Counted from the first letter of the stretch, positions 37,554-54,080 are shown. The stretch is 64,000 nt of DNA from an uncultured Candidatus Babeliaceae bacterium (GCA_963704655.1 OY969927.1:800001-864000); one strand, 5' to 3'. A program made the numbers and translations. Notes: a model not told the origin generated them from the letters alone.

Positions 37554-39413
37554 TCAACTAAATGCAGCTGCCTGCCTAATTGGCCTTAAAAGACGATGAT
37601 AAACATAGGGCTCCCCATCTTTTTCACCAAAGGTATATTCTGCTCTGCAGTTCTGTTCTGCGCCTGTGGTAAGATTTTTGCGAGTAACTTCAGCAATAAG
37701 TTCATCTTCCGCCTCTGAAGAACCATCTTTCATAAAAGGAACAAGCTCCCCCACATATTGAATAACATAATCAAGCATCTGGGCAAAAGTATGATGCTCT
37801 ATGGTACTTTTTGCCAATTTCATCGCTTTTTTACCTTGTCCCTGCCTTTTTAAAATACGTTCATGATAACGAAGGCCCTTAATTTCTGCATAATTACGAT
37901 TAAGATCCGCTTTTGCCTTAACAATAAGCTCTTCATCTTGCTGCGGGTCCTCGATAACAAATATTTTATTTATTGGATCAATTTTACTCACAGAGCTACC
38001 ATCATCTACTTTGAAATTGTTGTTCCATTCTTTTGTGGTAATAGCAAATGGATCTTGCTCAGGCACTTTTGCAAATTGGCTAGAAGATTCGCCTTGCGTA
38101 ACTAGCGCAGGCTCTTCAAGAGTGGCCTTTTCTTTGCCTTTTTTTGATTTAGTTTTTTTCTTTTCTTCTTCTTGCAATAATTGCTGTTCTGCCCGCTCGG
38201 CTTTAATCTTTTTTATTGCTGGAAATAACTCATCCGTATCTAAATATATATCATCAAACTTATTCTTAGACTCTTCTATGAGCTTGAAACCTTCATTTTC
38301 ATTTTTATTTACACCAATACCAAAAAGGCGCATGTACCCGCGCGTTAAAATTACAGATCTTTGCGTGTTGTCAGTATCATTATAAATTTTTTTGAAATAC
38401 TCTTGTGCTTTTGCCTCATCTTTTTCAACACCAAACCCATAATGATATGCTATGGCTAGTTGCAATAGACCAATCGGCAGAATATCTATTTTGTTTGCTT
38501 CCGCTTGTTCAAGTATACGGATACCCTCTTGTTGTTCACCTTGTGTAATAAGTATCGTGCTATATAAAAATGCTGCTAAGTAATCTATTTTTGCCAGCTC
38601 TTTAAGCGATCCTTTTGCAGCTTGAGTATCGCCAACTATTTTTTTAGTCCATATTAGGCGCGCAATATGCGCCTTACCGCGTGCGCTATTTGCTTTCTCA
38701 AAATATTCACGGGCCTTAACTATGTTCGGTTTATGATCATTAAAGCCTTTTTCAGCCAAAAGGCCCAATCCAATGCATGCCAATTCGTAATTGTGAAAGG
38801 ATCGAATATGCTTTTCTGCAGGTAAATTTATAACCCTTAAAAACAAATCATGCGCTTTTTGTAAATCTTGTGGTATAACTTCATTTCCTTTGAAAAACTC
38901 AACAGCTAAATTGTAAATCCCCAGGGGATTATTTTTTGATGCCAATTTTTGATAATACTCAACAGCTGTTTTAACATCTTTTGGACCACCCTTCCCTTCA
39001 TTTAAAAGCTTGGCTAAATTGCTCATCGCATCATCTTCATAAGCAGTATGCATATCAATTGCTACTAGATAGTATTTTCTAGCCCTTCTATAATCTTTAT
39101 TTTCTTGATATTCAAATCCTAGATTATAGTTTTGTTCTAGAAATCCATGCGCTACAGCTTCAGACATATATCTTAATTTCTTATCTTTATCATTTTCTTT
39201 TATAGCCAAATCAGCCAAACGATTATAAGCATCAGGAATCCGATCACGCACCTGAAGAAGCATTCTTTCCGCTTCTGGCAAACTGTTATTACCCGCTATT
39301 AACATAGTCGCAAAATTATATATATATTCAGGATTGGCATCTGGGCCCGGATATCTAAAAAGTGCTGTGATTGAAGTAAAAGATAAAACTAGCAATACGA
39401 TTAAATAGTTCAT
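37554..39413 (-). CDS. Secreted SEL1-repeat protein with a conserved C-terminal domain; paralog of 55247..57163
   Basis: GKGGPKD..A..YY and GFGVEKD..KA SEL1 repeats; Lys-rich linker; terminal VYHRLLRP. Confidence 0.85.
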   Translation of the reverse strand: MNYLIVLLVLSFTSITALFRYPGPDANPEYIYNFATMLIAGNNSLPEAERMLLQVRDRIPDAYNRLADLAIKENDKDKKLRYMSEAVAHGFLEQNYNLGFEYQENKDYRRARKYYLVAIDMHTAYEDDAMSNLAKLLNEGKGGPKDVKTAVEYYQKLASKNNPLGIYNLAVEFFKGNEVIPQDLQKAHDLFLRVINLPAEKHIRSFHNYELACIGLGLLAEKGFNDHKPNIVKAREYFEKANSARGKAHIARLIWTKKIVGDTQAAKGSLKELAKIDYLAAFLYSTILITQGEQQEGIRILEQAEANKIDILPIGLLQLAIAYHYGFGVEKDEAKAQEYFKKIYNDTDNTQRSVILTRGYMRLFGIGVNKNENEGFKLIEESKNKFDDIYLDTDELFPAIKKIKAERAEQQLLQEEEKKKTKSKKGKEKATLEEPALVTQGESSSQFAKVPEQDPFAITTKEWNNNFKVDDGSSVSKIDPINKIFVIEDPQQDEELIVKAKADLNRNYAEIKGLRYHERILKRQGQGKKAMKLAKSTIEHHTFAQMLDYVIQYVGELVPFMKDGSSEAEDELIAEVTRKNLTTGAEQNCRAEYTFGEKDGEPYVYHRLLRPIRQAAAFS

Positions 39414-39728: not shown

Positions 39729-39805
39729 GTGCCCATAGCTCAGCTGGATAGAGCAACGGATTTCTAATCCGTAGGTCGTAGGTTCGAATCCTACTGGGCA
39801 CACCA
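39729..39805 (+). tRNA. tRNA-Arg (anticodon TCT)
   Basis: GTGCCCA/TGGGCAC acceptor stem, D-arm AGCTCAGCTGGATAGAGC, anticodon arm ACGGA-TTTCTAA-TCCGT, GGTTCGAATCC, encoded CCA. Confidence 0.97.
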
Positions 39806-41260
39806 ATTTCCAGTTTTTGCAGTTTCCATCACCACCCCAAATACGGGTTTAAGCTCCACGTCGATCTTTCCATCATTATAAGAACAGTTGGATGTTAAGA
39901 GCTCAATTATTCTTCTTTTAGCTGCAGCATTTCCATTTTTAAACAGCTCAGCCGCATTTTTCGCAAGTTCGATGATAAAGCGTGCATTTTCAAGATATTG
40001 TGTATCTGCCTTTTGAACAGCCAATAATTTTGTTAGCAGTTCTTCTTTTTCTGCCGACCATTTTTGAGAATTGGTCTTCCAGAATTCTTCACTGATTTTG
40101 CCATCGAGCTTATCTAAATAGACCTGATCGATTCTATTTTGTAATAAGCGTATCTGTTTTTCAAGCTGGGCAACCAAGCTATTATGGTATTCAATTTTGT
40201 CTTTTAAACTTTCACGAATTCCCTGTAAAATTATCTCTTGGTTTTCACTGGATACGTATAGGTTATCAACTATTATCGTAAATTGTTCTTCGATAGCTTC
40301 CTGTCGTATATATTCTTTCTTGCAGTTTCCTTTTGAAGTCGTGCAATAGTAATAAATATACTTATCCTTTTTAAGATCAGCTGTGAGCATACAGCCACAT
40401 TTGCTGCATTTTATAAGATTGGTGTAGGGAAATATCCCTTTCTTTGACTTGCTTTTACGTGGATTAAGAAGAACTTCCTGAACGCGTTGAAAGAGCTCCT
40501 TGCTCACCAATGGTTCATGGGAAGCATTTTCATATTTTTTGCCATTCCAGTAAAAAACACCCGTATAGAATTCATTTTTAAGGATAGTTTCAACTTTGCT
40601 GGTGTAGAAGTTTTTGCCATTACGATAAACCATCCCATCAGCTAACATCTTCTTGCGCAAAGACAGAAGAGAGTATGATCCAGTAGCATACAGTTCAAAC
40701 ATTTTCTTAACATATGGTGCTGTCTGTGGATCTACTAAGATGACCTTTTTGTCGCCTTTAAAGGTGTTAATATAACCATAAGGAGCTGTTGAAGGGTATG
40801 TTCCTTGAGCTGCTTTTTCAGTCATGCCTTTTTTAACTTCTTCTGATAGATTATCAATGTGATTTTTAGCCATAAGTGCTTTGATTCCAAAAATGAATTT
40901 CTCATTAGAACGTGCTTCTTTGCTAAGTATTACGTTCTCTTTAACAAGATGAATCCTTATATCACAGTCTTGTACGAGACGTTCCAGTAAGGCGTAATCG
41001 AACATGTTTCGTAAAAGTCGATCTGTTTTTTCTACTAAAAGATGCTTAACTGATCTGTTTTCATCAAAGAAAGCGAGCATTTTATTAAATTCTGTACGCC
41101 CAGCCTTTTTTGCAGTTTCTGCGTTAGCAAATTCTTTTACAATCGTATAATTGTTTTTAGCGGCATATTCATGTAGAACTTTAAGCTGCGCAGGGATCGA
41201 GAAACCTTCGACTTCTTGGTCTTTTGATGAAACTCGGGCGTAGATGACGGCTTTATTCAT
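39791..41260 (-). CDS. Large serine recombinase (integrase)
   Basis: YARVSS catalytic motif, DRLLR, recombinase domain APYGY, zinc ribbon CSKCG...YYYC...C. Confidence 0.95.
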   Translation of the reverse strand: MNKAVIYARVSSKDQEVEGFSIPAQLKVLHEYAAKNNYTIVKEFANAETAKKAGRTEFNKMLAFFDENRSVKHLLVEKTDRLLRNMFDYALLERLVQDCDIRIHLVKENVILSKEARSNEKFIFGIKALMAKNHIDNLSEEVKKGMTEKAAQGTYPSTAPYGYINTFKGDKKVILVDPQTAPYVKKMFELYATGSYSLLSLRKKMLADGMVYRNGKNFYTSKVETILKNEFYTGVFYWNGKKYENASHEPLVSKELFQRVQEVLLNPRKSKSKKGIFPYTNLIKCSKCGCMLTADLKKDKYIYYYCTTSKGNCKKEYIRQEAIEEQFTIIVDNLYVSSENQEIILQGIRESLKDKIEYHNSLVAQLEKQIRLLQNRIDQVYLDKLDGKISEEFWKTNSQKWSAEKEELLTKLLAVQKADTQYLENARFIIELAKNAAELFKNGNAAAKRRIIELLTSNCSYNDGKIDVELKPVFGVVMETAKTGNWCAQ

Positions 41261-41288
41261 GATGCCTTTTCCGGATGCGTGTGAAATT

Positions 41289-41714
41289 TTATTTTTGTTT
41301 TGTTTTCATCCAAATAGCTACAATAGCACCTAACGCCAAAAATGTTAGCCCAAGTAAATCATTATTCGTGCTTTGCCTTTGGATTTGAGCTTGCTCTAGA
41401 TGTATTTGTTGCCGATAAGCCCTTTCTTCTTGCTGAAGTCGTTCTTGGTGAGCGATCTCTTCCTGCCGCAATCGTTCTTGGCGGGCAATTTCTTCTTGTT
41501 GCAGCTGCTGTTGATAGGCTATTTCTTGCAATTTTTGTTGGTGCATTAATTCTAATAGTTCGCGTTGTGCGGCCATTTCTCTTTGATGAGCTTGTTCAGC
41601 AGTCTTTTGGCGAGCAAGAGCCTCGAGAGCCTCGCCAATCCCTTTGCCTAGTGCGCTGCCAAAACGCGCTCCCGTACTTTCTGTCGGAGTAAATCCATTA
41701 GAAAAATTTGTCAT
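41289..41714 (-). CDS. Gln/Glu-rich coiled-coil protein with a C-terminal TM helix
   Basis: QEEIARQERL repeats; hydrophobic tail. Confidence 0.65.
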   Translation of the reverse strand: MTNFSNGFTPTESTGARFGSALGKGIGEALEALARQKTAEQAHQREMAAQRELLELMHQQKLQEIAYQQQLQQEEIARQERLRQEEIAHQERLQQEERAYRQQIHLEQAQIQRQSTNNDLLGLTFLALGAIVAIWMKTKQK

Positions 41715-41737
41715 TATATTTCTTTATATTATTTTAA

Positions 41738-41932
41738 TTAGCTTCTTGAATAAGAATTGACGTATTTATACCCATTACTTGGCTTAAAATAACCTTTGGT
41801 ACTTTTAGTTTTAATCCTGCCTGTAGATTTGCTAACTTTTCCAAAGCCATCATACATAGCCTTCTTTGAAAGTAATTGAGTGGTTGAAATAAGGCATATA
41901 ATAGCGAATATTTTTACAAAATAGTGTTTCAT
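41738..41932 (-). CDS. Small basic secreted hypothetical protein
   Basis: Signal-like N-terminus; KGYFKPSNGYKYVNSYSRS. Confidence 0.55.
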   Translation of the reverse strand: MKHYFVKIFAIICLISTTQLLSKKAMYDGFGKVSKSTGRIKTKSTKGYFKPSNGYKYVNSYSRS

Positions 41933-41962
41933 TTGGGTTTTTTCGATTATTGACAGATATTG

Positions 41963-42145
41963 TTATTCTTTTGATTCGACTTCTTTTTCATACAACAGAC
42001 GAATGCCTTCGCAAATAATTGTAGATCGGTCCGTTTTATTGCGATCACGTAGGCGCTTAATGAAGATCTCATCTAAGAGGTGTTCATCGGTTAACGACAT
42101 ATAAACGGTAGTTTTTGCCTTTTTTGGAACTTCCGATTCTTGCAT
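41963..42145 (-). CDS. Ribbon-helix-helix-like regulator
   Basis: KTTVYMS strand followed by two helices (DRSTIICEGIRLL); AAGGA RBS. Confidence 0.65.
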   Translation of the reverse strand: MQESEVPKKAKTTVYMSLTDEHLLDEIFIKRLRDRNKTDRSTIICEGIRLLYEKEVESKE

Positions 42146-42328
42146 ATTTTTCCTTAAATAATGAATTTTCTCTTATCTATAATGGCTCAATTAGAGAAAG
42201 ACGTCAAGTAATTAAACAAGTTAAATGCAAAAACTACTTTACATTATGTCATTTTTTGATAATTTTATAATAAGAAATAAATAATATAGCTTAATTAACA
42301 AAATCCAAAGATTATTGGGGAGGATATT

Positions 42329-44812
42329 TTGTCTACTATTGAAATTGGGATTGATTTAGGAACCACAAATTCCTCTATCGCGGTCATTCAACAAAATGCG
42401 GTACAGGGCATTAAAAATGCTTCAGGGGAAGAAAGTACCCCTTCTGTCATCTACGCTGATAAAAATGGAAACATTGTTGTCGGGTCGAGAGCGAAGAGAA
42501 TTATGAATAATTCCAAAGAAAACCTGCAAAATAGCAAGGCCGAAATCAAGCGTTTGATGGGTACAGCAGAGACTATTTTTTTCCCCAACTTGAATAAAAA
42601 AATGCTTCCCGAAGAAATTTCGGCAGAAATTCTGAAAGTACTTATAAATGATGCTAAGAGGAAGTACCCAGGGCTGCTTTTAGATGCGGCTGTGATTACG
42701 GTCCCTGCTTATTTTTCTACTGTGCAATCTGAGGCGACGAAAAGAGCTGGAGTTTTAGCGGGTTTGAGGCAAGTAGTTCTTCTTCAGGAACCAATTGCCG
42801 CAGCAATCGCATATGGTTTTCTTAATCAGAAGAACGAAAATTGGCTTGTATATGACCTAGGTGGCGGTACTTTTGATGTTGCTCTCGTAGCATTGCGTGA
42901 TGGATTTCTTACAGTTCTTGCCCATGCGGGAGATAATTTTCTCGGTGGTAAAGACTTCGACGCTGCGATCATACAAAATTTAATTCTTCCATCTCTTTCT
43001 ACCAAAGGTATCGTTTTAGATCCGTCAACTCACTCAGAAATCTTTAGTTACTTGAAAGAACTTGCTGAATTAGCAAAAATTGAACTTACCACGTGCGAAA
43101 GGACAACTATCGATATCGATGTCCAAGTAAATCAAGCCCAGGTCGAGCATTCTATTGAAATAACAAGGACAGATCTGCTGGAAAGCTGCAAACATTTGCT
43201 TGAAAAAACGGTCGACCTTTGCAAGAAGACAATCAGTGACGCCAATGTGGATCCAGCAACAGTTCAAAGAATTGTTCTTGTCGGTGGGCCGACACAAATG
43301 CCAATCTTACAAACTTTTTTGAAAAATTCCTTGCGAATCAATGTAGATGGAGGTTTAGATCCTCTACTAGTGGTTGCAAAAGGTGCTGCTATGTTCGGCA
43401 ATCAAACAGTAATCACTACCCCTGAAGGACAAGGGGATATCGACATATCAAACGTTTCCTGCCAGCTCGAAGTAAATTACAATCCAGTAACATCCGATGA
43501 TGAACAAATTGTCACAGGCAAGGTTTTGCGCATCACTGGTGCATCTCAGCCATATTCAGTTCAGTTTGCAAGCTCTGATGACTCCTTTGCGTCTGAAGAG
43601 ATTCTTATTAAAAATGGCAAATTTATACTGACGCTTCCTACAGGCAAAAAAGGTACATCATATTGGATTTATGTTAAAGACAATGATGGTCAGCTGATTA
43701 CTTCAGCTCCTGAAAGCATTCAAATTAATAGAGGCATTTCTATCATGGGAGCCCCCCTTCCTTATTCAATTGGCGTATCCGTGATTTCTCTTTCTTCCCA
43801 CAAAGGTTATGCTGATCCGACCGAGACAATAGAATTCTTTTTTTCTAAAAATAGCATTTTGCCCCTTAAAGAAAAAAAACGCTTTTATACTCTTGCCGAT
43901 TTAAGAGCAGGATCCTCCGAAAATGCTCTCCCTATTTGCATTTATGAAGGCGAATCTCTTATCACAAATCGAAATACTTTAGTCTGCCATTTGGCAATCA
44001 CAGGAAAAGCAATTTCTAAAGATTTGAAAAGAGGCACCCCGGTCGACATCACAATTGAAGTTAATGAATCAAGAGAGTTGAGTGTGATGGCCTATCTTCC
44101 GGATTCTGATATTACCCTTAATGCAAGAGAAACTTTGTATTTTGATGCTGCTAAAATTGACGAGGTAAAGAAGGATTTTACAGAGCAGGTAACACGCTCA
44201 GAATCCATAGCTGCATCTGCAGGGCCAATAAATGAAACCAATGGCATCAAGAATATGATTAAAGATATTCAATCTACTATCGATGACTCAGGATCAGACT
44301 CAGATCAGCAAAGAAAGGCAGAAAAACAAGTAAAAGACTTGATGATGGCCCTTGATCGAATTGAGGCGAAAACAAAATTTAATAGCAATGTTGCTACTTT
44401 CTGGCAAGAATGCCAGGAGCTCACTGATTATCTGGAAGATTGTAATCCGCCTGATAAACGCACCGAATACGAAGCCACATATAATACTCTTCGTAAAGAA
44501 GGATTAATGGCTATATCTAAAGAAGATGCGATATTATTAGAGCATATTGTTCAAAAATTGAGTCGACTTAATTTCAGATGTGTGTATAACGATGTTCGTT
44601 ATCTGACCTCATGGATTAAAGATTTAATAAAACAGGTGCAGGAAAAGGCCCATCTCCATCCTACTCTTCCAGACTTAATCAACAGAGCCAAAGATGCCCT
44701 AGCTAAATTAAATGTAAAAGAGATGCAGGAGCTTATTCATGCGCTTGATCCATTTACGGAGGAAGAAGGAAAGCATCAGGTTCGATTTGTGAAGTCGGGA
44801 ATTACGTTATGA
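42329..44812 (+). CDS. Divergent, extended Hsp70-family protein (not the housekeeping DnaK)
   Basis: IGIDLGTTNS, AVITVPAYF, EPIAAA, DLGGGTFD, LGGKDFD, LVGGPT; ~110-aa insert before an SBD-like region; TTG start with GGGGAGG RBS. Confidence 0.9.
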   Translation: MSTIEIGIDLGTTNSSIAVIQQNAVQGIKNASGEESTPSVIYADKNGNIVVGSRAKRIMNNSKENLQNSKAEIKRLMGTAETIFFPNLNKKMLPEEISAEILKVLINDAKRKYPGLLLDAAVITVPAYFSTVQSEATKRAGVLAGLRQVVLLQEPIAAAIAYGFLNQKNENWLVYDLGGGTFDVALVALRDGFLTVLAHAGDNFLGGKDFDAAIIQNLILPSLSTKGIVLDPSTHSEIFSYLKELAELAKIELTTCERTTIDIDVQVNQAQVEHSIEITRTDLLESCKHLLEKTVDLCKKTISDANVDPATVQRIVLVGGPTQMPILQTFLKNSLRINVDGGLDPLLVVAKGAAMFGNQTVITTPEGQGDIDISNVSCQLEVNYNPVTSDDEQIVTGKVLRITGASQPYSVQFASSDDSFASEEILIKNGKFILTLPTGKKGTSYWIYVKDNDGQLITSAPESIQINRGISIMGAPLPYSIGVSVISLSSHKGYADPTETIEFFFSKNSILPLKEKKRFYTLADLRAGSSENALPICIYEGESLITNRNTLVCHLAITGKAISKDLKRGTPVDITIEVNESRELSVMAYLPDSDITLNARETLYFDAAKIDEVKKDFTEQVTRSESIAASAGPINETNGIKNMIKDIQSTIDDSGSDSDQQRKAEKQVKDLMMALDRIEAKTKFNSNVATFWQECQELTDYLEDCNPPDKRTEYEATYNTLRKEGLMAISKEDAILLEHIVQKLSRLNFRCVYNDVRYLTSWIKDLIKQVQEKAHLHPTLPDLINRAKDALAKLNVKEMQELIHALDPFTEEEGKHQVRFVKSGITL

Positions 44813-46626
44813 ACATCCAGCTACCGCAGGTTTTGATTAGAAATTCATTCAATATACTAGGCCTTTCTTCTTCTGCTACTTTAAAGGAAATTAGAAAAAG
44901 AACTCAGCAACTTTTACAACTTGCAAAAATTGAAGAGATGCAAAAGTTTGATGCTGATATCGGGCATGTCTGTGAATTTCGAAATGAGAACGAAGTTCGG
45001 CTTGCAATGGAAAGAACATCGAGCGTCAAGGAACGCCTACGGGAAACCTTTTTTTGGTTCGATGACCATAATATAGAAAATCAGAAAGCCATTGCCCTTA
45101 TTTCGCAAGAGAATTATCGTGAAGCTATAGCTATCCTCGAAAAAACGAATGCTGCAAGCATGGATTGGTTAGAGCATAAGAACTTAGCCCTGGCTTTGAT
45201 TTTCCAAGCCTTTGCTTCCTCGGATCTTAGTAGTTTTAGTCACTCATTAGAGTTATGGAAACGAATCGTAGAGTCTGAAGTTTTTTGGAAGTTCTATGAA
45301 AAAAATTATATGCTTCATGATGAGTTTGGAACGTCTACATTCTTATTTCAGGAATTTAGAAGCTCAATTTACGAATCTTTATCCGCAATGACAGTTTCTT
45401 TCTATCATCAAACTAAAAATCCTGAAGCCATAGGCATTTATTTTTCTGAATTCGGTCAAATAGAAAAATCTATAGACTGTGAGGTTATTCAGCCAATCGT
45501 GACTAAGATTAAAAAAGAAATAGAAGACTTAGAAAAAATAGCTTCAGAATCGAGCAGCGATGCGAGCTTGATAAAGCAGGCTCTAGAAAAAATTCATAAA
45601 TACTTTGTGAAACTGGATCAATTTAAACTCTTCGAATATTCGCCATTAACTATCCTAAAAAATGACTCTGCTGAAAAATTACGATCTATTTCTATTGATA
45701 TCTATAATCAGAGTGAGAATGCTGAGTTAGCCTCATTGTTCCTTGATCAAAGTGCAGAGCTTGCTATTTCTGATGTAATTGTAAGAAAGATTGAGTCTGA
45801 CAAAAAAGTGATAAAAAACAATGAATTATGGGAGGCAATTTCTACCAGGTTCAATCGAATAAAAGAATTAATCGCAGAGAAAAAAATCGAAGAAGCTAAA
45901 AGTGTTTATTACGATTTGGACAATGAACTGGCTAGGCAAAATAACGGGTCATCTAAAGATACTAGAATCGTTCTGCTTATTCGCCTTTGCTATCAATTGA
46001 TGGGGAAGGGACATGAACTTTTCAATAAAAAAAAGTTTGGTATCAAGATTCTTGCGATTGGCGCTTTTTTAAATCGGCAAAATCATAAAGATGCGATACA
46101 TATTTTTGAGTATGTAATTGAAATATTGATGAATAAAATCTCTATATTAAGTTTTATAGATATTTACAATGACAGATCTTATCTCTTAAAAGAAATAGAA
46201 AATATATCAAACTCTCTAGAAAATTGTGAACTTTCTGATTTAATAAATGAACATGAACCGTACTTAAAATCACTAGAAATGTTTGCCGATGGGCAAGAGA
46301 ATGAGGATACGCAAGCTGTAATACATGTGCTAGGTTTTGCCATATACTTTAGCATTTTGTATCGCAGGATTCGTGGTATTATGCAAAGAAAAATGTGGCA
46401 ATGGGTAGCTTGTGGAACGGTAATTGCCTTCTATTTCTTAGTAATTATGAATAATGACAAGTGCGAATCAAAAATTGAGAAAGCTTTAACCTACGAAGAA
46501 AAAAGTATTATTGAATATTTGCAGGAAAATAGCCCGGAAGTACTTAAGAATATTAGAAGGGAGGGTTATTCTGATAAACAGATAGCCCAATATGCTTTAG
46601 ACCAAATAGCGAATGAGAAAAAATGA
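44809..46626 (+). CDS. Helical protein with an N-terminal J-domain-like segment and a C-terminal TM helix
   Basis: NSFNILGLSSSATLKEIRKR resembles J helices I-II but has no HPD; WQWVACGTVIAFYFLVIM TM segment. Confidence 0.7.
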   Translation: MNIQLPQVLIRNSFNILGLSSSATLKEIRKRTQQLLQLAKIEEMQKFDADIGHVCEFRNENEVRLAMERTSSVKERLRETFFWFDDHNIENQKAIALISQENYREAIAILEKTNAASMDWLEHKNLALALIFQAFASSDLSSFSHSLELWKRIVESEVFWKFYEKNYMLHDEFGTSTFLFQEFRSSIYESLSAMTVSFYHQTKNPEAIGIYFSEFGQIEKSIDCEVIQPIVTKIKKEIEDLEKIASESSSDASLIKQALEKIHKYFVKLDQFKLFEYSPLTILKNDSAEKLRSISIDIYNQSENAELASLFLDQSAELAISDVIVRKIESDKKVIKNNELWEAISTRFNRIKELIAEKKIEEAKSVYYDLDNELARQNNGSSKDTRIVLLIRLCYQLMGKGHELFNKKKFGIKILAIGAFLNRQNHKDAIHIFEYVIEILMNKISILSFIDIYNDRSYLLKEIENISNSLENCELSDLINEHEPYLKSLEMFADGQENEDTQAVIHVLGFAIYFSILYRRIRGIMQRKMWQWVACGTVIAFYFLVIMNNDKCESKIEKALTYEEKSIIEYLQENSPEVLKNIRREGYSDKQIAQYALDQIANEKK

Positions 46627-47696
46627 TAAAATTTGCCAAACCATCATTTCCGCCTGGATGGATTTTGCCTGACGGAGCGAAGATTTTAAAAAGAATCGAT
46701 AAGCAAGAATTTGCTGAAGTGTTTGAGCTGAATACCGGAGAGTATCTTTATTTATTTCATGAAGAAAAAATTGCAAAAAAACTCAAAAGCCGCGGAATTT
46801 CACATGAAATCTATTTTATTAGCGGTGCAAAAGCTATTGGGAAAAAATATTCTGACCATAAAGATGGTGATCTTCCAGAAAGGTTGAAAAATATTATCCA
46901 AAGAAGAGGGCTAGATGCTATTGCAGGTATGACTGCACTTAAGAACACTTTAGTTAGAGATGTTATTCAGCCGTTTCTAAACTGGGAGGCATATGAAAAA
47001 TATGGCGTTACCCCATCTAATGGTATTCTTTTATTCGGCCCTCCTGGTTGCGGTAAAACATTTATAGCAAAAAAACTTGCAGAGGCAATGAAAGCTGAGC
47101 TTATTGAATTGAGCGAGGGAACCGTTGGTAGCCCTTATATTCATGCAACCTCCACAAACATTGTGCAGGCGTTTCAAAAAGCTGCGATGGTAGCTCCATC
47201 TGTACTCTTTGTAGATGAAATTTCAGGATTAATGCCAAGAAGAGATGGACTATCTTCACAAGAGCAATACAGAGAAGCAGAAATCAGCGAATTTTTGATG
47301 CAGATGGAAAGCAGTGTAAAGAATAAAGTCCTAGTAGTTGCAGCAACTAATTTCCCAGAGAAAATCGATCCGGCAATTTTACGTTCTGGGCGAATGGATA
47401 AAAGAATCTTTATCTCACCCCCTGATGCAGAAGCAAGATGCGAATTATTGCACCTGTTTTTAGAAGAAAGACCCATTGATAAAGAAATCGACTTTGAAGA
47501 ACTTGCCAGGATCACAGAAGGGCTAATTTCTTCTGACCTAAAATTAATAGCTAACAATGCTGCCCTGAAGGCGCTACATAAGAATGCATTAATTTCTATG
47601 GAGTTATTAGCAGAAGAAGCTTCACAGTTTAAGCCATCCTTAACTCAAACTGAACTAAATCGATATCGTGAATTCGAAGGCTACAATAGAGGTTAA
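46623..47696 (+). CDS. AAA+ ATPase (classic CDC48/FtsH clade, single module)
   Basis: GPPGCGKT, LFVDE, ATNFPEKIDPAILRSGRMD second region of homology. Confidence 0.93.
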   Translation: MIKFAKPSFPPGWILPDGAKILKRIDKQEFAEVFELNTGEYLYLFHEEKIAKKLKSRGISHEIYFISGAKAIGKKYSDHKDGDLPERLKNIIQRRGLDAIAGMTALKNTLVRDVIQPFLNWEAYEKYGVTPSNGILLFGPPGCGKTFIAKKLAEAMKAELIELSEGTVGSPYIHATSTNIVQAFQKAAMVAPSVLFVDEISGLMPRRDGLSSQEQYREAEISEFLMQMESSVKNKVLVVAATNFPEKIDPAILRSGRMDKRIFISPPDAEARCELLHLFLEERPIDKEIDFEELARITEGLISSDLKLIANNAALKALHKNALISMELLAEEASQFKPSLTQTELNRYREFEGYNRG

Positions 47697-48045
47697 AATC
47701 TTTTTTATTAATAATAACGACGGAGTGCTTCTGCGCATGTTGAAATTTAATGATAACTTTAATTCAGAGGCATTTTAATTCAGACAAAAGTGATAAAGCA
47801 TCTAAAAATCGTTTAAATATACAGCCCAATATTAAGTTAAAATAAATATCTTTTTCGTTATTAAGGCAAAGAACTTAATTATGATAATTTTGTAAATGCT
47901 TTAATACGTTGGTATTTCGTTATTGATATATTGCATAAATCCATCTATACGCGGAGATCTCTTCCTTTTTGGGATTTTGCTTGCATTTCTTTTTAACGAC
48001 AAGATAAGGTAAAAAAATAAATAGAACTTATACACGAGAAGAATA

Positions 48046-48144
48046 ATGGATTATGAAACTCTTCAATCGCTTGCTACCTTTACGTTTTTTTTATCAGTTT
48101 ATAATTGGTTTAAAATATGTAAGTGCAAATGTGAGCGAAAATAA
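48046..48144 (+). CDS. Putative 32-aa hydrophobic/basic peptide (not in the ORF track)
   Basis: MDYETLQSLATFTFFLSVYNWFKICKCKCERK with a purine-rich RBS. Confidence 0.35.
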   Translation: MDYETLQSLATFTFFLSVYNWFKICKCKCERK

Positions 48145-48156
48145 AGAGGTATCAAA

Positions 48157-48378
48157 ATGATGGGCGCTGTTTTAGAAATTCTATCAATGATAGTATTTTT
48201 TTCTGTATTCCCATTAACTTTTTATTTAATTTTCTATGTGGTTACTAAGATTGGAAAAAATAAGATAGTAACAGATGAAAAGACCAACCAACACAATCAA
48301 TTGGTTAACCTGCTTCAAACGATTATCTGGCTCCTAATTGTTTGCATAGTGCTTTTAATTACTCGATGGCACTATTAG
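48157..48378 (+). CDS. Small two-TM membrane protein
   Basis: GAGGT RBS; two hydrophobic helices. Confidence 0.6.
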   Translation: MMGAVLEILSMIVFFSVFPLTFYLIFYVVTKIGKNKIVTDEKTNQHNQLVNLLQTIIWLLIVCIVLLITRWHY

Positions 48379-48414
48379 ATTTTTCTTTACTCAATCTCGC
48401 TGTATGGCACTTCA

Positions 48415-48816
48415 TCACATATATTTTGGGATTTCTACAACAACAACTTTGGTTTCCCCTTTATTTTCTGATTTATCCCTTAAGTTCATCAACCACTTAC
48501 GATATTTGGGGTCATACAAAGGCATTGTATGCAGAACTATCTGCTTATCTAACACCCCTTCTTGAGCAAGGCGTTCACGTCTTGAGCCTATTAATGTTAA
48601 GGCTATATCGTAAGCTTTGGCAAAGTATTCTGAGTTAGCTGGCAAATCATGAAAGATTTTTGGTGACATCATAATGCTAATTGGGAATTCATCTAAGGTA
48701 AGCGCATCTGGGTTCTTCGCCCATTCGGCAAACTCATCTGCCAATTTTTGATACTCTTCTTCACTTGTAGGTGCTGTACGAAATTTGAGCAATTTATTTT
48801 TTTTAGAAGCTGCCAT
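48415..48816 (-). CDS. Phage-type protein, possible terminase small subunit
   Basis: Helical ~130 aa with AYDIALTLIGSRRE; overlaps the HGGxSTG gene; AGGAG RBS. Confidence 0.45.
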   Translation of the reverse strand: MAASKKNKLLKFRTAPTSEEEYQKLADEFAEWAKNPDALTLDEFPISIMMSPKIFHDLPANSEYFAKAYDIALTLIGSRRERLAQEGVLDKQIVLHTMPLYDPKYRKWLMNLRDKSENKGETKVVVVEIPKYM

Positions 48817-49069
48817 ATGATATCTCCTGGCTATAGATTAAATCTTTTAGTGTTCTGTGGCTTTTTCGTATCTCGCTAATTAAGCTACGGTTATGTGTCC
48901 GTTCCGCCTTTGCAACTTTGGTTTTATGGCCATGCTTTTTGGGTATCGCTCCCCCATGGTAATAGCATCTGCCATTTTTCATAGCTGCTTGACGGCACGA
49001 TAAACCGAAATTACTTCTTGCTTTAGCACCGCATCTTGGAAGCGATTTAAAATTCATCTTGAAGCGCAT
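48803..49069 (-). CDS. HGGxSTG-domain (Zn-finger) protein
   Basis: RCGAKARS...CRQAAMKNGRCYYHGG. Confidence 0.8.
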   Translation of the reverse strand: MRFKMNFKSLPRCGAKARSNFGLSCRQAAMKNGRCYYHGGAIPKKHGHKTKVAKAERTHNRSLISEIRKSHRTLKDLIYSQEISYGSF

Positions 49070-49152
49070 AAAATATCTTTCGTAACTGTTTTATATGAAA
49101 ACGACGAGAATTTTTTCTCGTCGTTATAAAGCTATTTTAGAATGTATAAAAA

Positions 49153-49500
49153 TTATTCTCCCAACAAACCGTGATCTTTGAGCTCTTTAATAGCATCAGG
49201 AGAGTCTTGCAAAAGCGTTTGAATTAATTGCGGTTTTCTCATTTGCATCATTGTCGCCATCATAGGATTTTTAAGATACTGGCTATAATCATATAATGCC
49301 AATTCAACTGCATTGCTAACGCCTAAAGCTTCCTTTTGTTGCCCAGCCAAGTTTTTAACAATGTCTGTTTTTTCAATAAAATGGTCAAAGCCAGCTTGTT
49401 GTAATCGAGCTGTTAAGACCTTAGCTTCTGGTAAAGTTATCAAAACTGCTTGAAGCGAAGCTCCAGTAACTAGTAAACTTAAAAACAAAAGTTTTTTCAT
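49153..49500 (-). CDS. Secreted hypothetical protein
   Basis: Start at MKKLLFLSLLVTGASLQA behind an AAGGA RBS. Confidence 0.7.
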   Translation of the reverse strand: MKKLLFLSLLVTGASLQAVLITLPEAKVLTARLQQAGFDHFIEKTDIVKNLAGQQKEALGVSNAVELALYDYSQYLKNPMMATMMQMRKPQLIQTLLQDSPDAIKELKDHGLLGE

Positions 49501-49591
49501 AATATTCCTTTGTAGATTGGTTTGTTTTAATTTAAGACTTTCTAAAGAAATTATAGAATGAATACCAAAAAATATCAAAGAAGCGCATGGG

Positions 49592-50044
49592 CTATTCTCC
49601 ATTTTTAGATTTGCCCCCTACTTGAACCATCGCATTAAGCACAGCGTTGCCCTCAGAATGCACGTTGTAGTTAACGTTAATAGTTTGACTCTTGCCACGG
49701 TACTGTTGAAGTGTATTAAGAGCCTGGTGGCTAAGTCTTATCATCATCATTCCCTGCCCTATAATGTTGTAATTATCTTCTTCAATAATGGACATGGCCT
49801 TTAAGTGAAGCGCGACATATTGTGCAGCAAGTATAGACTCAACAGTATCTTTGGGATTAATACCTCGTATTAAGGCAATAACCGCATCAACATCCTTTGC
49901 TGAAGGATCATAAATAGACGGGCCATAGATCATGAGCATTGCACGATTTACAAGCAGCCTTGCCGCATCTTGATTATCGCAGTTTATAGCTTCAACAAGA
50001 AGTGAAATTTGACTTGGCAACGATATTTTTTTTGTTTTCGCCAT
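49592..50044 (-). CDS. Satellite/prophage hypothetical protein of the type found beside HGGxSTG genes
   Basis: INPKDTVESILAAQYVALH...LQQYRGKSQTINVN.NVHSEGNAV. Confidence 0.65.
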   Translation of the reverse strand: MAKTKKISLPSQISLLVEAINCDNQDAARLLVNRAMLMIYGPSIYDPSAKDVDAVIALIRGINPKDTVESILAAQYVALHLKAMSIIEEDNYNIIGQGMMMIRLSHQALNTLQQYRGKSQTINVNYNVHSEGNAVLNAMVQVGGKSKNGE

Positions 50045-50055
50045 GGATATTCCTC

Positions 50056-50290
50056 GGTTGAAAGGTTGAACGACTTCATTATCATGTTCAAATTATAATT
50101 CTAGCTCTAGGTCGATGGATTGCTGTCGATAAAAGGCTTGGTTGAAGGGTTGATAAATCTTATTACTCATTTTAAGTATCGATCTTGATCAACCCTTCAG
50201 TTTTAATTATTCATTATTAAATAAATATAGCCTATAGGATGTTTTTTAGGTTGAAACTACATTTCAACTTTTTTCAACAACTTCAACTAT
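50056..50290. repeat. GTTGAA/TTCAAC iteron-like cluster, putative element origin
   Basis: GGTTGAA at 50056, 50064, 50140 and 50249; GGTTGAT at 50148; TTCAAC at 50263, 50273 and 50282; AT-rich core. Confidence 0.55.
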
Positions 50291-51949
50291 TACAGGTTTA
50301 TAGATCCAATCCTTTCGGTGCTCTTTTTTTTCAAAAGTTACTCTACCACTGTCGATTAAAGTTTGAAAAATATACTCATATTCTTTAGAACCACCCTTCA
50401 ACTTTTTTGAGGTAATAATTTGCGCCCACGTAACAGGTCTTTTTGAAGCAGCAGCCCATTTGCAAAGAGCTTCATGCATTATACGGCACTTCCGTTCATG
50501 CTCAGACTCTCCCAATTCTCCCTCAAAAAGCTGAATTGTGGACTGTATAGCGCGATGCAAGATCGCAAAAGCAGCCCAGAGGGCTTCCTCGCTTATATCT
50601 TTTGTAGTCGGATCTATAAAAAGCTGTATGATCATTGCTAACTTTAAAAGATACGGACTCCATCTTTTTAAGTATGGGTCTAAGATTTCTCGACTTCGGT
50701 CGCTATAAGCTTTTGGCATATCATTGATTTTTTTATGCATCGCTTCAAATACTGCTTTTGCAGAGCCTGCAAGAGGATTGAAGACGTAATTGTCACTTAT
50801 CGCATCTAAAACATCCATTATTTCTGCTTCAATTTCATGATCCGTTTTTTCTGTGTGGGCAGGCAAAGCAGGTGGAACTTCTTCTTGATGAGGTGGCGTA
50901 AAAATCAAAAAGCGGGCGAAAAATCCACTAGGGATATCCGTTATTTTAAGGTTATCTTGAATCCAAGGTAAAGTAGAAACGCCACATATGGAAAAGCAAG
51001 GGCGTTCTAATATACAATCGCCCTGTGTTTTGGTTTTATATCTATAAGATGGTGGAACATCATAAAGTTCGGTGAATATAGCTTTTAAATCATTATTATG
51101 GTTTTTATCAAAATTTTGTAACCATGCTCCAAATTCACTGGCAAGAATAACTCCTTGATGCCCTTGGCTTAGATGTTCGAGTAGGGCCTCTGCTGTCATT
51201 TTATTAGGCAAAATGACGTCTTGTCTTGAAATCGCAAGTATATCTTCCTCGATCATTTTTTTTTCTTTTGGATCTATTGTTATGCGGAGTGATGCATGTA
51301 ACTTTTTGATCTGATCAGTTATGATTTTATTTTTTACCCAAGCAAGGTTGGCCCCTTTATTAAGTGCCGTGCTCTTAAATTGTCCGCTTTTTGTGATGGA
51401 TAGTATCCATAAGTTAGGAAAAAGAGTTTGAAAATATGGGTATGAAACACGCTTTCCTAAAATAGCAGAGATTGTAGCCATCACAGACATTGTTATCATT
51501 ATTGGGTGCGCATTTGTTGTTTCGCAAATAGAGAGTATATAAGTACTGAGTGGAGGCGGTAGAAGCGATGGAGTAAAACCTTCGCAAGGATCGTCTTTTT
51601 TTTGACCAACCACAGACAATTTCTCGAGCTCTAAAGGTAGAAGATCATTCAAGCCGGCTTTGTCACAGAGTGAGTTAAATTCGGCTTGTTCATTTTCATT
51701 TAGCGGATGCGAATCATAAGTATACTCAGCGCCATCGCCCCAGTACATACATGTTAAGGATTCTTGATTATTTCTTAACGTAACTGATGCCATATACATA
51801 GCTGGTTTATTATAAGGTTGGGCTATATATTCGTAAGTATTACCATCTGGTGTGATCGGTCCATCTATGGCCAGATCATGTTCAGCCATATGTTGTCGAC
51901 ATTCTTCAAATAAATTACGTTTTTTTATGATATAATTAAGATTATTCAT
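50264..51949 (-). CDS. DUF3987/YfjI-like replication protein (helicase-like)
   Basis: NLWILSITKSGQFKST, TAEALL..L, SEFGAWL, GFFARFL. Confidence 0.8.
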   Translation of the reverse strand: MNNLNYIIKKRNLFEECRQHMAEHDLAIDGPITPDGNTYEYIAQPYNKPAMYMASVTLRNNQESLTCMYWGDGAEYTYDSHPLNENEQAEFNSLCDKAGLNDLLPLELEKLSVVGQKKDDPCEGFTPSLLPPPLSTYILSICETTNAHPIMITMSVMATISAILGKRVSYPYFQTLFPNLWILSITKSGQFKSTALNKGANLAWVKNKIITDQIKKLHASLRITIDPKEKKMIEEDILAISRQDVILPNKMTAEALLEHLSQGHQGVILASEFGAWLQNFDKNHNNDLKAIFTELYDVPPSYRYKTKTQGDCILERPCFSICGVSTLPWIQDNLKITDIPSGFFARFLIFTPPHQEEVPPALPAHTEKTDHEIEAEIMDVLDAISDNYVFNPLAGSAKAVFEAMHKKINDMPKAYSDRSREILDPYLKRWSPYLLKLAMIIQLFIDPTTKDISEEALWAAFAILHRAIQSTIQLFEGELGESEHERKCRIMHEALCKWAAASKRPVTWAQIITSKKLKGGSKEYEYIFQTLIDSGRVTFEKKEHRKDWIYKPVIVEVVEKS

Positions 51950-52011
51950 TAAAATCTCTTTTCGATTGAGGCCATCTTGGCATATGGTGGCCTTATTTTG
52001 TTATGGATATG

Positions 52012-52278
52012 TCAATTTCTAACAATTTCTTCAAACTTTGAAACCACCTCCCTCTCTATATGTTCCGCTACTTCTTTATTAATTGGGTAAAAAACATTGA
52101 GTCCTCCAGTGTGGTACTTTCTGGTCGGGTAAGTTAATCGGTATCCGCCACGAGGGCGAGTGAAGATACCTATCGCACTCATATAAAAACAGTCATTTAA
52201 AATGAAGCTTGCGAATCCTACTAAGCCATTTTGGGGTTTAACAGGTGTGATCCGGATATTGTTGATTTGATATTGCAT
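52012..52278 (-). CDS. SpoVG-like nucleic-acid-binding protein
   Basis: NIRITPV...GLVGFASFILND.FY...YRLTYPTRK...VFYPINKE. Confidence 0.75.
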   Translation of the reverse strand: MQYQINNIRITPVKPQNGLVGFASFILNDCFYMSAIGIFTRPRGGYRLTYPTRKYHTGGLNVFYPINKEVAEHIEREVVSKFEEIVRN

Positions 52279-52426
52279 ACGTTTTTCCTTTATTTACTTT
52301 TTGTTTTTGATCAAGTTCCATTAATGCTATAAACAGATCTGCAAGTTGCTTGCGCTCATCTGCTGATATCGGCTGTGTTCCTCGTGGAGGAATATGAATT
52401 TGCATTTTTAAGGATTTTTTAATCAT
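52238..52426 (-). CDS. Small hypothetical protein
   Basis: Short helical ORF overlapping the SpoVG-like gene, in the same operon. Confidence 0.45.
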   Translation of the reverse strand: MIKKSLKMQIHIPPRGTQPISADERKQLADLFIALMELDQKQKVNKGKTYAISNQQYPDHTC

Positions 52427-52580
52427 GGGGCTATTGTAACCCCATATGTTAGGCCTAAATTAGGTCTAACTAGACTTAATCCACAAAGCGTTGAATCGTG
52501 CGTGTGTGAAGGTATTTAAAGAAATTGTAATGATGGCTATAGCTAAGAAAACTTTAATTTTAGCCCAAAAAGTATCGAAT

Positions 52581-53756
52581 TTAAGGAAGATATATGGGAT
52601 TAATACGAACAAAAGACATATCAAAATCAAGAAAATCTTTTAAACCGCATTCTGCGAATAGTTTCTGATTTATGTGCACACAAGCATCGTACATTGCCTG
52701 CATACCATCATCTTCAGGAGCTGTTCCGACAATATCTTCATACAAATTTTTAAAATAGCGAGGCAGATTTCTGTTGTTATATTTTCCTGAGAGATCTTCG
52801 AGTATTTTTCCAGGGTATCCATAAGCAGATCTGGGGTTTTTATTAGATTTTTTTTTATCCATTAATGCGAAGTTACGAAATTTTGCTATTTTCCCTTGAC
52901 ATGAGAAATATCTCTTTTTAGGACAATAACTCCAATCTGTGATTTTAGTTTGCGGAATAGACATGGCGTGAATCAGCCTTTTTTGAGCATAAAGATGTAA
53001 CTGCTGCATATACATTTTAAAATAGCGTGGATTAAATCCTTGCTCGGGGAATTGAGTATCTTTTGTTGGGCCTATGGCCCGATTAAGAGCATTGTTGCGA
53101 ACGGTCAAGGTAAGGTCATAAATAGGGTGTTGCTTATGCGCAATGGCTTTTCGCTCTTTATGCTGTTTTTGATCGTAAATCCAGAGAAAGTCTGTGAGGT
53201 TATCAAGAACCCACCATTCACGCGTTAGTTTTATACGATTAAAATGGTTATTTTCCTCAGACAACTCATCTGTATTGATATCAAATGTTATAGGTTGCTG
53301 AAGATTAGCCTCGTCGATCCTAGCATGTTGCCGTATAAAAGGACGATGATCTACTCTTGTGTCTCGTAACAAGAACTTAAAAATATTTATTAATATCGTT
53401 AGTTGCATGAAAAAAGCTACAACAGAAAGATCTTGTTTGATCCAAGGCAGCGAATTAATAATATTTGGATCATTTATATTTTTTTCCTTGATGTAAGCTT
53501 GCAGACTCTTACAGATTGACGAAGTTTTTCTAAATAACTTTTTCAGCAGAGAATTGAGTGGAGCAAAATCACCATGTCTGCTATTCCATATCTCGTTGGC
53601 TATTGGAACGAGTACTGGATCGGTTATGAATAATTGAGTAAACCTAGCAATTTTTGGGGCTGAAATTTCGATACTGTCGACATCCATGTATTCGCAAAGT
53701 ACGCCTAATTCCTCTAGAAGTATCTTTTCTGGGTTCATATTATTCTTGATATACAA
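52581..53756 (-). CDS. Hypothetical protein with a possible C-terminal winged helix (element regulator)
   Basis: C-terminal AMYDACVHINQKL...LKDFL...VRINP. Confidence 0.6.
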   Translation of the reverse strand: MYIKNNMNPEKILLEELGVLCEYMDVDSIEISAPKIARFTQLFITDPVLVPIANEIWNSRHGDFAPLNSLLKKLFRKTSSICKSLQAYIKEKNINDPNIINSLPWIKQDLSVVAFFMQLTILINIFKFLLRDTRVDHRPFIRQHARIDEANLQQPITFDINTDELSEENNHFNRIKLTREWWVLDNLTDFLWIYDQKQHKERKAIAHKQHPIYDLTLTVRNNALNRAIGPTKDTQFPEQGFNPRYFKMYMQQLHLYAQKRLIHAMSIPQTKITDWSYCPKKRYFSCQGKIAKFRNFALMDKKKSNKNPRSAYGYPGKILEDLSGKYNNRNLPRYFKNLYEDIVGTAPEDDGMQAMYDACVHINQKLFAECGLKDFLDFDMSFVRINPIYLP

Positions 53757-53960
53757 CTTTTATGGTTTTACATTTTTAATTTCAACAAAAAGGATACAGT
53801 ATATTTTGATCTAACACATAATTTATTTGCAGAAAATCATCAGGTTTTGCCGTTAGCAGCAATTATTTTTTTAAGCTATTGCTGGTAGGAACAGACGAAT
53901 GGCGTAGATTATGCTATTTTCTATAAAAGAGTTGGTGAAATATTCCGATAGGGCACACCA

Positions 53961-54080
53961 TCCTGCGCCTATTCCAGCCGTCGCTGCCATGCAGCTGTGG
54001 CGGACAGGCCAGGCCAATTCACAGCCGAAGTGTGACAAAGCCTTGGCAGAGACGTATTGGCAAGCTACGCCAGACATGGT
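53961..54080. repeat. GC-rich REP-like cluster just outside the right attachment site
   Basis: GC-rich hairpin-prone tract; aagctacgccagaca resembles aagttatgcccggcaca at ~39660. Confidence 0.4.

Follow-up and report, generated by a model that had tools for sequence, protein, structure and literature searches.

Serine integrases are valued as simple, strictly directional recombinases that act on short attachment (att) sites with a 2-bp crossover and need a directionality factor for excision, and how their timing and dosing are set in nature is poorly known. In the characterised large serine integrases attP lies, to our knowledge, outside the integrase open reading frame (ORF), and tRNA genes are not targeted. 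Here we analyse a 64-kb stretch of DNA from an uncultured Candidatus Babeliaceae bacterium (GCA_963704655.1, OY969927.1:800001-864000; hereafter the window, with coordinates counted from its first letter), in which a large serine integrase gene runs across its own attP core into the 3' end of a tRNA-Arg gene. The overall explanation that we consider best, with a probability of roughly 0.7, is that a tRNA-inserted element encodes two integrase isoforms, one of which carries a C-terminal tail that would be constrained as DNA in its proximal part and as protein in its distal part, with a role as an instability signal.

Integrase genes that cross their own attP have been described among tyrosine recombinases. 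Excerpts of the account of Mx8 place attP within the int gene of IntP, where integration makes a recombinant gene with a new 3' end, and report that this C-terminal change alters the behaviour of the integrase without inactivating the enzyme (PMC6070905); part of another paper likewise notes that the integrases of Mx8 and SSV extend across attP (PMC4383910). As in Mx8 IntP, the integrase ORF of the window spans the attP core and integration changes the C-terminus. Unlike IntP, which these excerpts treat as a tyrosine recombinase, the window enzyme has serine-recombinase domains only, and it is the layout, not the protein family, that is the same. A further difference from Mx8 is that the window element swaps about 26 residues beyond the folded domains, its core being the very 3' end of the tRNA with a Trp encoded by the complement of CCA. 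In SSV-type archaeal integrases, too, the recombination site lies within the integrase ORF, and integration is reported to split the gene in two (PMC7253208), whereas the window integrase keeps all three of its Pfam domains.

The mycobacteriophages of the BPs type resemble this locus in having attP inside a gene and in losing a C-terminal extension on integration. In those phages it is the repressor that crosses attP and the integrase is a tyrosine recombinase, while here the integrase itself crosses and no repressor is involved. This precedent of an attP-in-gene truncation that removes a tag from a repressor had been invoked in an earlier reading of the window (hereafter the original prediction) and holds; the Mx8 precedent and the tRNA-targeting trait of the family were absent from it. 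Like the islands recognised by Islander, the element has an intact tRNA gene at one end, a displaced 3' fragment (10 bp only) at the other and the integrase next to the tRNA. Unlike those islands, which have a tyrosine integrase, it has a serine integrase, and serine-family integrases were, according to the relevant part of the 2014 Islander paper, not known to target tRNA genes (PMC4383910). In the open-access literature that was searched (without supplements), no serine integrase was described as crossing its own attP or as targeting tRNA 3' ends. The principle of an integrase that crosses attP is already known from the tyrosine recombinases of Mx8 and SSV, and the serine-integrase case is apparently new, no report of it having been found.

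Attachment sites and integrase C-termini

The sole tRNA gene of the window (ARAGORN, Rfam), the integrase and the two ends of the element are laid out as follows.

39729-39805, plus strand: tRNA-Arg (anticodon TCT), integration target, 3' end rebuilt by the element (ARAGORN; Rfam tRNA, 76.2 bits)
39791-41260, minus strand: large serine integrase, chromosomal isoform, 489 amino acids (ORF call; Pfam Resolvase 2.7e-24, Recombinase 1.4e-19, Zn_ribbon_recom 1.4e-08)
39796-39805, plus strand: attL copy of the 10-bp core, comprising the acceptor-stem 3' strand, the discriminator base and CCA; its minus strand encodes W-C-A of the integrase
39806-39830, minus strand: putative P arm of attP, inside the last integrase codons (...K-T-G-N), from the usual size of serine-integrase att sites and from att alignments
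53871-53950, minus strand: tail-coding segment of 26 codons and a TAA stop, which becomes the integrase C-terminus in the attP (excised) form only (profile match, E 2.3e-5)
53927-53950, minus strand: putative P' arm of attP, coinciding with tail codons 1-8, from att alignments of five element pairs and synonymous-site conservation
53951-53960, plus strand: attR copy of the 10-bp core, formerly the 3' end of the tRNA and displaced by the element

Because Resolvase, Recombinase and Zn_ribbon_recom domains are present, the protein can be assigned to the large serine integrases, in agreement with the original prediction. The Resolvase domain occupies residues 4-154 (Pfam). Among 60 aligned homologues R9, V10, S11 and S12 are invariant, the catalytic Ser standing in an R-V-S context, and the same holds for the zinc-ribbon cysteines C285, C288, C306 and C313. 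The Ser of R-V-S is presumably the nucleophile. Like the integrases of phiC31, Bxb1, A118, TP901-1 and SPbeta, the enzyme combines a catalytic domain, a recombinase domain and a zinc ribbon with a long coiled-coil insert, and its sequence matches the TP901-1 and A118 integrase structures with E-values of 1e-8 to 1e-6. The coiled-coil motif in the zinc-ribbon domain was modelled with AlphaFold2 in P0004, a homologue with 73% identity, as helices 338-385 and 391-442 at predicted local distance difference test (pLDDT) values of 81-93. All three Pfam domains are intact in the integrated form, and the tail alone differs.

The 3' end of the integrase gene overlaps the tRNA-Arg gene by 15 bases, and the 489-residue form terminates in ...TGNWCAQ at a TAG codon (39791-39793) that is the complement of the T-stem 3' strand of the tRNA. 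Perfect copies of the core 10-mer GGGCACACCA occur at exactly two places of the window, 39796-39805 and 53951-53960, both on the plus strand, and the identity between attL and attR is confined to these 10 bp. When both ends are joined in silico, the integrase frame stays open through 53950-53871 and yields a product of 514 residues, with a 26-residue, Ala-terminal tail and a TAA stop at 53871-53873. The ORF and tRNA calls and the scripted joining reproduce in full what the original prediction had stated, namely an att core inside the integrase ORF, an integrated end on the antisense strand of the tRNA and an open, Ala-terminal tail of 26 residues in attP. Judged from this layout, the interval 39806-53950 is an integrative element of 14.15 kb with the 10-bp cores at its ends, inserted at the 3' end of tRNA-Arg(TCT).

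In such an element the attP crossover would fall inside the last codons of the integrase, where W-C-A is the complement of the CCA, discriminator and acceptor stem of the tRNA, and the gene would therefore have two products. The excised circle would encode the 514-residue integrase with its 26-residue tail, and the integrated copy the 489-residue form, ending after one residue of tRNA antisense. By the same logic the tail-bearing isoform would have to perform the attP x attB integration, and the tail-less isoform would be the one present when excision is needed. The existence of two isoforms, one for the integrated and one for the excised state, would thus follow from the gene layout itself.

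A tRNA-targeting family and the right end of the element

The 120 closest public proteins (the window's own included) are 58-77% identical to the window integrase, and the named homologues among them belong to Candidatus Dependentiae/Babeliales, which makes an uncultured member of this phylum the most likely host; Legionella, considered at first on account of the Sel1 repeats and the 37% G+C, was rejected on this evidence. Their C-termini were classed by cutting the alignment at the column of Trp486, the tRNA-antisense class being set by a simple pattern and checked at the DNA level only for those loci with DNA. Half of the proteins (50/120) stop at most 4 residues from the Trp, 51 read through into tRNA-antisense-like peptides of 9-28 residues, 6 are shortened before the Trp, and 13 have other, longer endings, 11 of which share a motif with the tail predicted for the window. 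When a profile of these 11 tail-bearing proteins was used for a second search, nearly the same proteins came back together with two further tail-bearing ones, for a public total of 13. The existence of two state-dependent C-termini, as originally proposed, is supported by the joined sequence together with these 13 tail-bearing and 101 integrated-type homologues, and relatives do keep an open, homologous attP tail (13 public proteins and five attR sites, the window's included), a point on which the original prediction stands up to the refutation that it set itself.

An opposite-strand tRNA gene lies at the integrase 3' end in 67 of the 80 best related loci in the genome collection, with nine target specificities (Arg, Ala, Glu, Asn, His, Gln, Pro, Ser and Asp) and with hosts labelled Dependentiae, Proteobacteria, Acidobacteriota, Melainabacteria and others. 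At 11446-11848 of locus L069 (labelled Gastranaerophilales), the integrase-family 3' end abuts a transfer-messenger RNA (tmRNA) gene, and ssrA is thus also used as a target. The TGG codon of the Trp sits exactly on the complement of the tRNA CCA in all five elements for which both ends are known, and the cores of 6-11 bp shared within these five pairs confine the crossover to the CCA/acceptor region. Which residues follow the Trp depends on the target tRNA, and the tail is retained behind them. A large family, reaching from Dependentiae into many other phyla, maintains this layout and appears to answer the long-standing statement that tyrosine integrases alone target tRNA genes. The family further accounts for an artefact common in annotations, in which the C-terminus of an integrase is translated tRNA antisense and could mislead domain or motif analyses.

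Among 50,697 phage and 72,556 plasmid records no close relative of the integrase was found, the best identities being 30.7% and 34.3%, respectively. A homologue search with the last 50 residues of P0004 recovered the query alone (3 candidates). In three more distant loci with 43-45% identity and no tRNA detected downstream (L026, L063 and L071), tails of 11-14 residues follow the Trp; that of L026 has an R-T-F-S stretch like the proximal motif, and these ends may be attP-type junctions with an early-closing tail.

Taken by itself, the 10-bp repeat is weak evidence for the right end, whose placement relies mainly on independent lines of sequence comparison. With at most one mismatch the core has 4 matches in the window against 1.48 expected, a number reached in 6 of 100 shuffles; a second exact same-strand copy by chance is estimated at about 0.06 per window, and no composition step marks the ends of the element. 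The match at 53951-53960 could on these grounds be accidental, the element ending elsewhere or being a fixed remnant. A profile was built from the tails of nine public integrase homologues only; among 42,883 stop-to-stop ORFs from the window and 80 related loci it matched the attR segment of the window (E 2.3e-5), on the right strand, in the right frame and adjoining 53960, and no other window segment came near. In the same set it matched locus L001 with an E-value of 1.2e-9. This locus, from a different genome and with an integrase 73% identical to that of the window, carries, 10,680 bp upstream, a second copy of 11 bp from the same tRNA end and encodes a homologous tail directly behind this far-end copy, in the same layout as the window. 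Core plus tail are likewise present in L005, L015 and L018. Outside the attR core the first ~40 bases are partly shared with the outer flank of L001, the tail just inside is shared as well, and the interval is filled by element-family genes, several of those between the repeats having homologues beside related integrases in other loci. Against a profile match at the exact site, strand and frame and a second locus of identical layout, a chance repeat is a very improbable explanation, and these comparisons argue that the right end, placed as in the original prediction, is correct and independently confirmed.

In the direct-repeat search of the 80 loci L001 was the one convincing case. Repeats of 9-10 bp were also seen in 21 other loci; they were treated as chance matches, being either not exactly at the tRNA end or followed by unrelated peptides, and among them is a 10-bp repeat in L013 that reads into an apparently unrelated long ORF. 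A position-weight matrix of the proximal 27 nucleotides of the tail revealed no attR within the 10-kb flanks of the loci beyond the four already known there, and most related elements probably exceed the 10 kb of flank that was searched.

Constraint on the tail and its possible role

Five tails are available as DNA (window, L001, L005, L015 and L018), which with the 13 public proteins gives 18 tails in all. Pairwise comparison of the first 8 codons behind the core, distant relatives included, gives only 5-8 differences in 24 nucleotides, and synonymous sites are as conserved as non-synonymous ones; for L015 and L018 the proportions of synonymous (pS) and non-synonymous (pN) differences are 0.13 and 0.40, respectively. 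In 5/5 pairs the proximal tail has a GGA-N-T-like motif whose spacing from the core matches that in the T-stem of the tRNA. From these features we infer that the proximal tail is the P' arm of attP, imitating the T-stem side of attB; att sites of serine integrases usually measure 40-50 bp, according to part of a recent preprint (bioRxiv 10.1101/2025.05.02.651858). Since this stretch is read as the P' arm, the conserved proximal residues would be largely a shadow of the DNA site, the first ~8 tail codons being constrained mainly as DNA.

The distal 16-18 codons present a different picture. Here 29-34 of 51 nucleotides differ, no conservation is left at the DNA level, and these codons would be free to vary as DNA. 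The tail frame nevertheless has no internal stop in 5/5 DNA tails, against 1-4 stops in each of the other two frames, and tail length stays within 18-33 residues in 18/18 cases and within 24-26 in 11/18. The observed distal amino-acid similarity was reached by 44, 171, 175 and 126 of 5000 random mutants with an equal number of changes, about half of these mutants gaining a stop. In the tail alignment, every residue at columns 19, 24 and 25 is hydrophobic and none at column 22 is (K or Q in 12/16 tails), and most tails are hydrophobic over their last 10 residues. A terminal Ala is found in 10/18 tails compared with 19 of 267 long ORFs (7%) from the window and Dependentiae-type loci, with a binomial probability of 1.8e-8 that was computed on 16 tails and is uncorrected for relatedness. 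On the tree of integrase bodies, all six tails of the window's own clade end in Ala though the residues before it differ. Taken together, these patterns make it quite probable that the distal tail is maintained at the protein level.

An AlphaFold2 model of P0004, which is a natural tail-bearing homologue, was computed from a 55-sequence alignment and has a mean pLDDT of 81, the coiled coil (338-442) included. Its last three blocks of 10 residues drop to 66, 53 and 46 and contain two short helices, so that the tail is predicted to be exposed and flexible and not docked on the enzyme; a modelled tail end of such low confidence fits an instability signal. According to the mechanism that we propose, the distal codons would be kept open, at a near-fixed length and with a short amphipathic pattern, which in the window's clade leads to a hydrophobic, Ala-terminal end. 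The proposed function of this distal tail is that of an exposed instability signal at the C-terminus, by which the episomal integrase would be kept short-lived in the manner of the BPs phages. Such a degron is the most likely single role for the tail, but we advance it tentatively, by analogy, and it is solely from the hydrophobic, Ala-terminal ending that we infer proteolysis of the BPs type. The original prediction is supported in part: its two state-dependent C-termini stand, and its stability or directionality switch is a reasonable hypothesis. Slightly more doubtful still is the wider proposal of a built-in state sensor, in which the tail would make the episomal integrase short-lived or integration-only and its loss would give a stable, excision-ready chromosomal form.

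A number of observations weigh against this explanation. The first 8 residues, which are the best conserved, are accounted for at the DNA level by the P' arm. The Ala ending requires four changes on the integrase tree and is weakly clustered there (27 of 500 shuffles are as low), and 8/18 tails do not have it, their endings including ILLI, ACGC, TYGY, SNAI, LSHL, AYAT, SAST and YQGL. A profile of distal tails alone placed none of the five DNA tails among its 10 best matches, and because it missed these known tails, the similarity between the window and its relatives must reside mostly in the core and the proximal 8-14 residues. The pN/pS ratio of the tail is 0.56-1.34 at saturated divergence, which indicates purifying selection that is weak at best, and because of this saturation the ratio is uninformative. 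As the attR sites of L005, L015 and L018 were found through an ORF-based profile, the openness of their tails is partly built in, and the column pattern derives from an alignment that was itself fitted to similarity. Neither a tmRNA (ARAGORN) nor Clp or Lon genes were found within the window, and the only tmRNA in the loci is that of L069. Finally, both isoforms are known here from sequence alone, and the tail-bearing proteins could come from tandem arrays instead of circles. The best match of the distal-only profile, a 20-residue ORF at 5100-5159 of L004 (E 0.0014), was rejected because neither a core nor a proximal motif adjoins it; an older element may have left it as a remnant.

Some of these points would also be expected if the tail were a by-product, with att lying in the last codons by happenstance, the proximal part conserved as the P' arm and the distal part a functionless, tolerated read-through. 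Conservation of the proximal motif extends to synonymous sites, the motif mirrors the tRNA side of attB, the distal-only profile misses the window's tail, pN/pS covers the range given above, the tail is modelled with low confidence, and between 0 and ~25 residues of tRNA antisense are tolerated at the end of the integrated isoform. What speaks for a function is that the 13 public and five DNA tails are all open for 18-33 codons, the probability of an open run of even 16 codons being ~0.38 at the stop frequency of the element, that their lengths cluster at 24-26 residues, that a terminal Ala is so much more frequent than in long ORFs, and that the pattern of hydrophobic and basic columns survives at sites where DNA divergence has reached saturation. 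We consider a mere by-product unlikely, though by a smaller measure than the remaining alternatives. The main functional rival to the degron is a direct effect on recombination, in which an amphipathic helix formed by the tail would favour attP x attB synapsis, or would block the directionality factor or a coiled-coil lock, the tail-less form alone being able to excise. By sequence logic the isoforms match the reactions, with a tail at integration and none at excision, and a conserved helix-like pattern is present. In addition, a comparable C-terminal swap changes the specificity of the Mx8 integrase, as excerpts of that work state (PMC6070905), and the extreme C-terminus of phiC31 integrase adds an acidic patch at the interface with the directionality factor, as stated in part of the preprint cited above (bioRxiv 10.1101/2025.05.02.651858). 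AlphaFold2, on the other hand, does not dock the tail confidently (pLDDT 46-66), the tails diverge quickly, and no directionality factor was identified in the element, a 60-residue ORF at 41963-42145 being merely a candidate; this direct role appears rather unlikely to us.

The natural source of the long isoform also has to be considered. None of 11 tail-bearing proteins lies on a contig >25 kb, as opposed to 37 of 101 integrated-type proteins (hypergeometric P 0.009; counted by hand), and this bias towards small contigs fits excised, probably replicating circles, tandem arrays being possible too. Were the public attP-form proteins products of tandem insertions or assembly joins, the long isoform would rarely be made in nature. 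The junction would be no different in an array at one tRNA gene, repeated DNA typically ends up on short contigs, and 64/101 integrated-type proteins are also on contigs of at most 25 kb; yet the contrast in contig size remains, the elements carry a primase/helicase-like gene, and the tail frame is maintained. This origin is in our view improbable.

If the tail alters stability or directionality, it would represent a compact and portable control element for integrase tools and a second, independent evolutionary origin of the principle seen in Mx8 and BPs, and if the state-sensor proposal is true, directionality or dosage would be controlled without a separate regulator. Even with an inert tail, the family offers many natural pairs of integrase and att sites aimed at conserved tRNA ends. 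The interest of these findings lies mainly with specialists in mobile elements and integrase tools.

Element content and host flanks

The remaining features of the element and its right flank are the following.

41963-42145, minus strand: 60-residue ORF, conserved immediately upstream of int; possible directionality factor or regulator (tblastn)
42329-47696, plus strand: cargo cassette of an Hsp70-like protein (827 residues), a protein of unknown type (605 residues) and an AAA+ ATPase (357 residues) (Pfam)
48415-50044, minus strand: backbone ORFs of the element family, 133, 88, 149 and 150 residues (homologues in L010, 70-94% identity, and in L001, L017 and L020)
50264-51949, minus strand: DUF3987 primase/helicase-like protein (Pfam DUF3987 4.8e-23; PHROG DNA primase 7.6e-23)
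52012-52278, minus strand: SpoVG-like protein, conserved in the element family (Pfam SpoVG 2.2e-10; homologues in 8 loci)
52581-53756, minus strand: 391-residue ORF of unknown family, the gene that would come next after the tail in the circle (weak homologue in L015)
53961-54077, no strand assigned: host flank, G+C-rich within a region of 36% G+C (composition)

Annotation of the interval 39806-53950 with Pfam, PHROG and PADLOC revealed no second recombinase and no virion genes. Three small ORFs lie next inward of the integrase. Relatives of the 60-residue ORF, which has no Pfam or PHROG match, occur just upstream of int in L001 (9437-9607), L004 (9501-9668), L006 (9788-9976) and L008 (9718-9885), with 59-88% identity. 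An ORF of 141 residues beside the integrase start (41289-41714, minus strand) matches no family or locus; it is overlapped by a 116-residue ORF on the opposite strand (41342-41692), and the DNA there looks repetitive by eye.

Within the cargo cassette the AAA+ ATPase resembles IetA (PADLOC, 2.9e-33) and TRIP13 (9e-15), and PADLOC named no other cargo protein. Parts of the cassette recur in L005 with 73-79% identity, and it may constitute a defence or chaperone-type system carried by the element. The DUF3987 protein is likely to provide a replication function for the excised element, as suggested by its primase-like domain matches.

On the host side of the right end, an ORF of 68 residues (53871-54077, minus strand) crosses attR in the frame of the tail, and its upstream part is not conserved in L001 or L005. 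The G+C-rich flank at 53961-54077 has no Rfam match at gathering or E-value thresholds, and its predicted fold is unremarkable (z -1.2). The genes beyond the repeats look chromosomal, with Sel1-repeat proteins on both sides, GroEL, ribulose-phosphate epimerase and an ATP synthase subunit. The two Sel1-repeat proteins that flank the island are encoded at 37554-39413 (minus strand, 619 residues) and 55247-57163 (plus strand, 638 residues). Farther to the left, the window encodes a protein of 1993 residues with a terminal Peptidase_S74 domain (11411-17392), a fusion of ankyrin repeats and aldehyde dehydrogenase (21038-23650) and an autotransporter (29177-31057); a gene content of this kind is typical of an intracellular bacterium.

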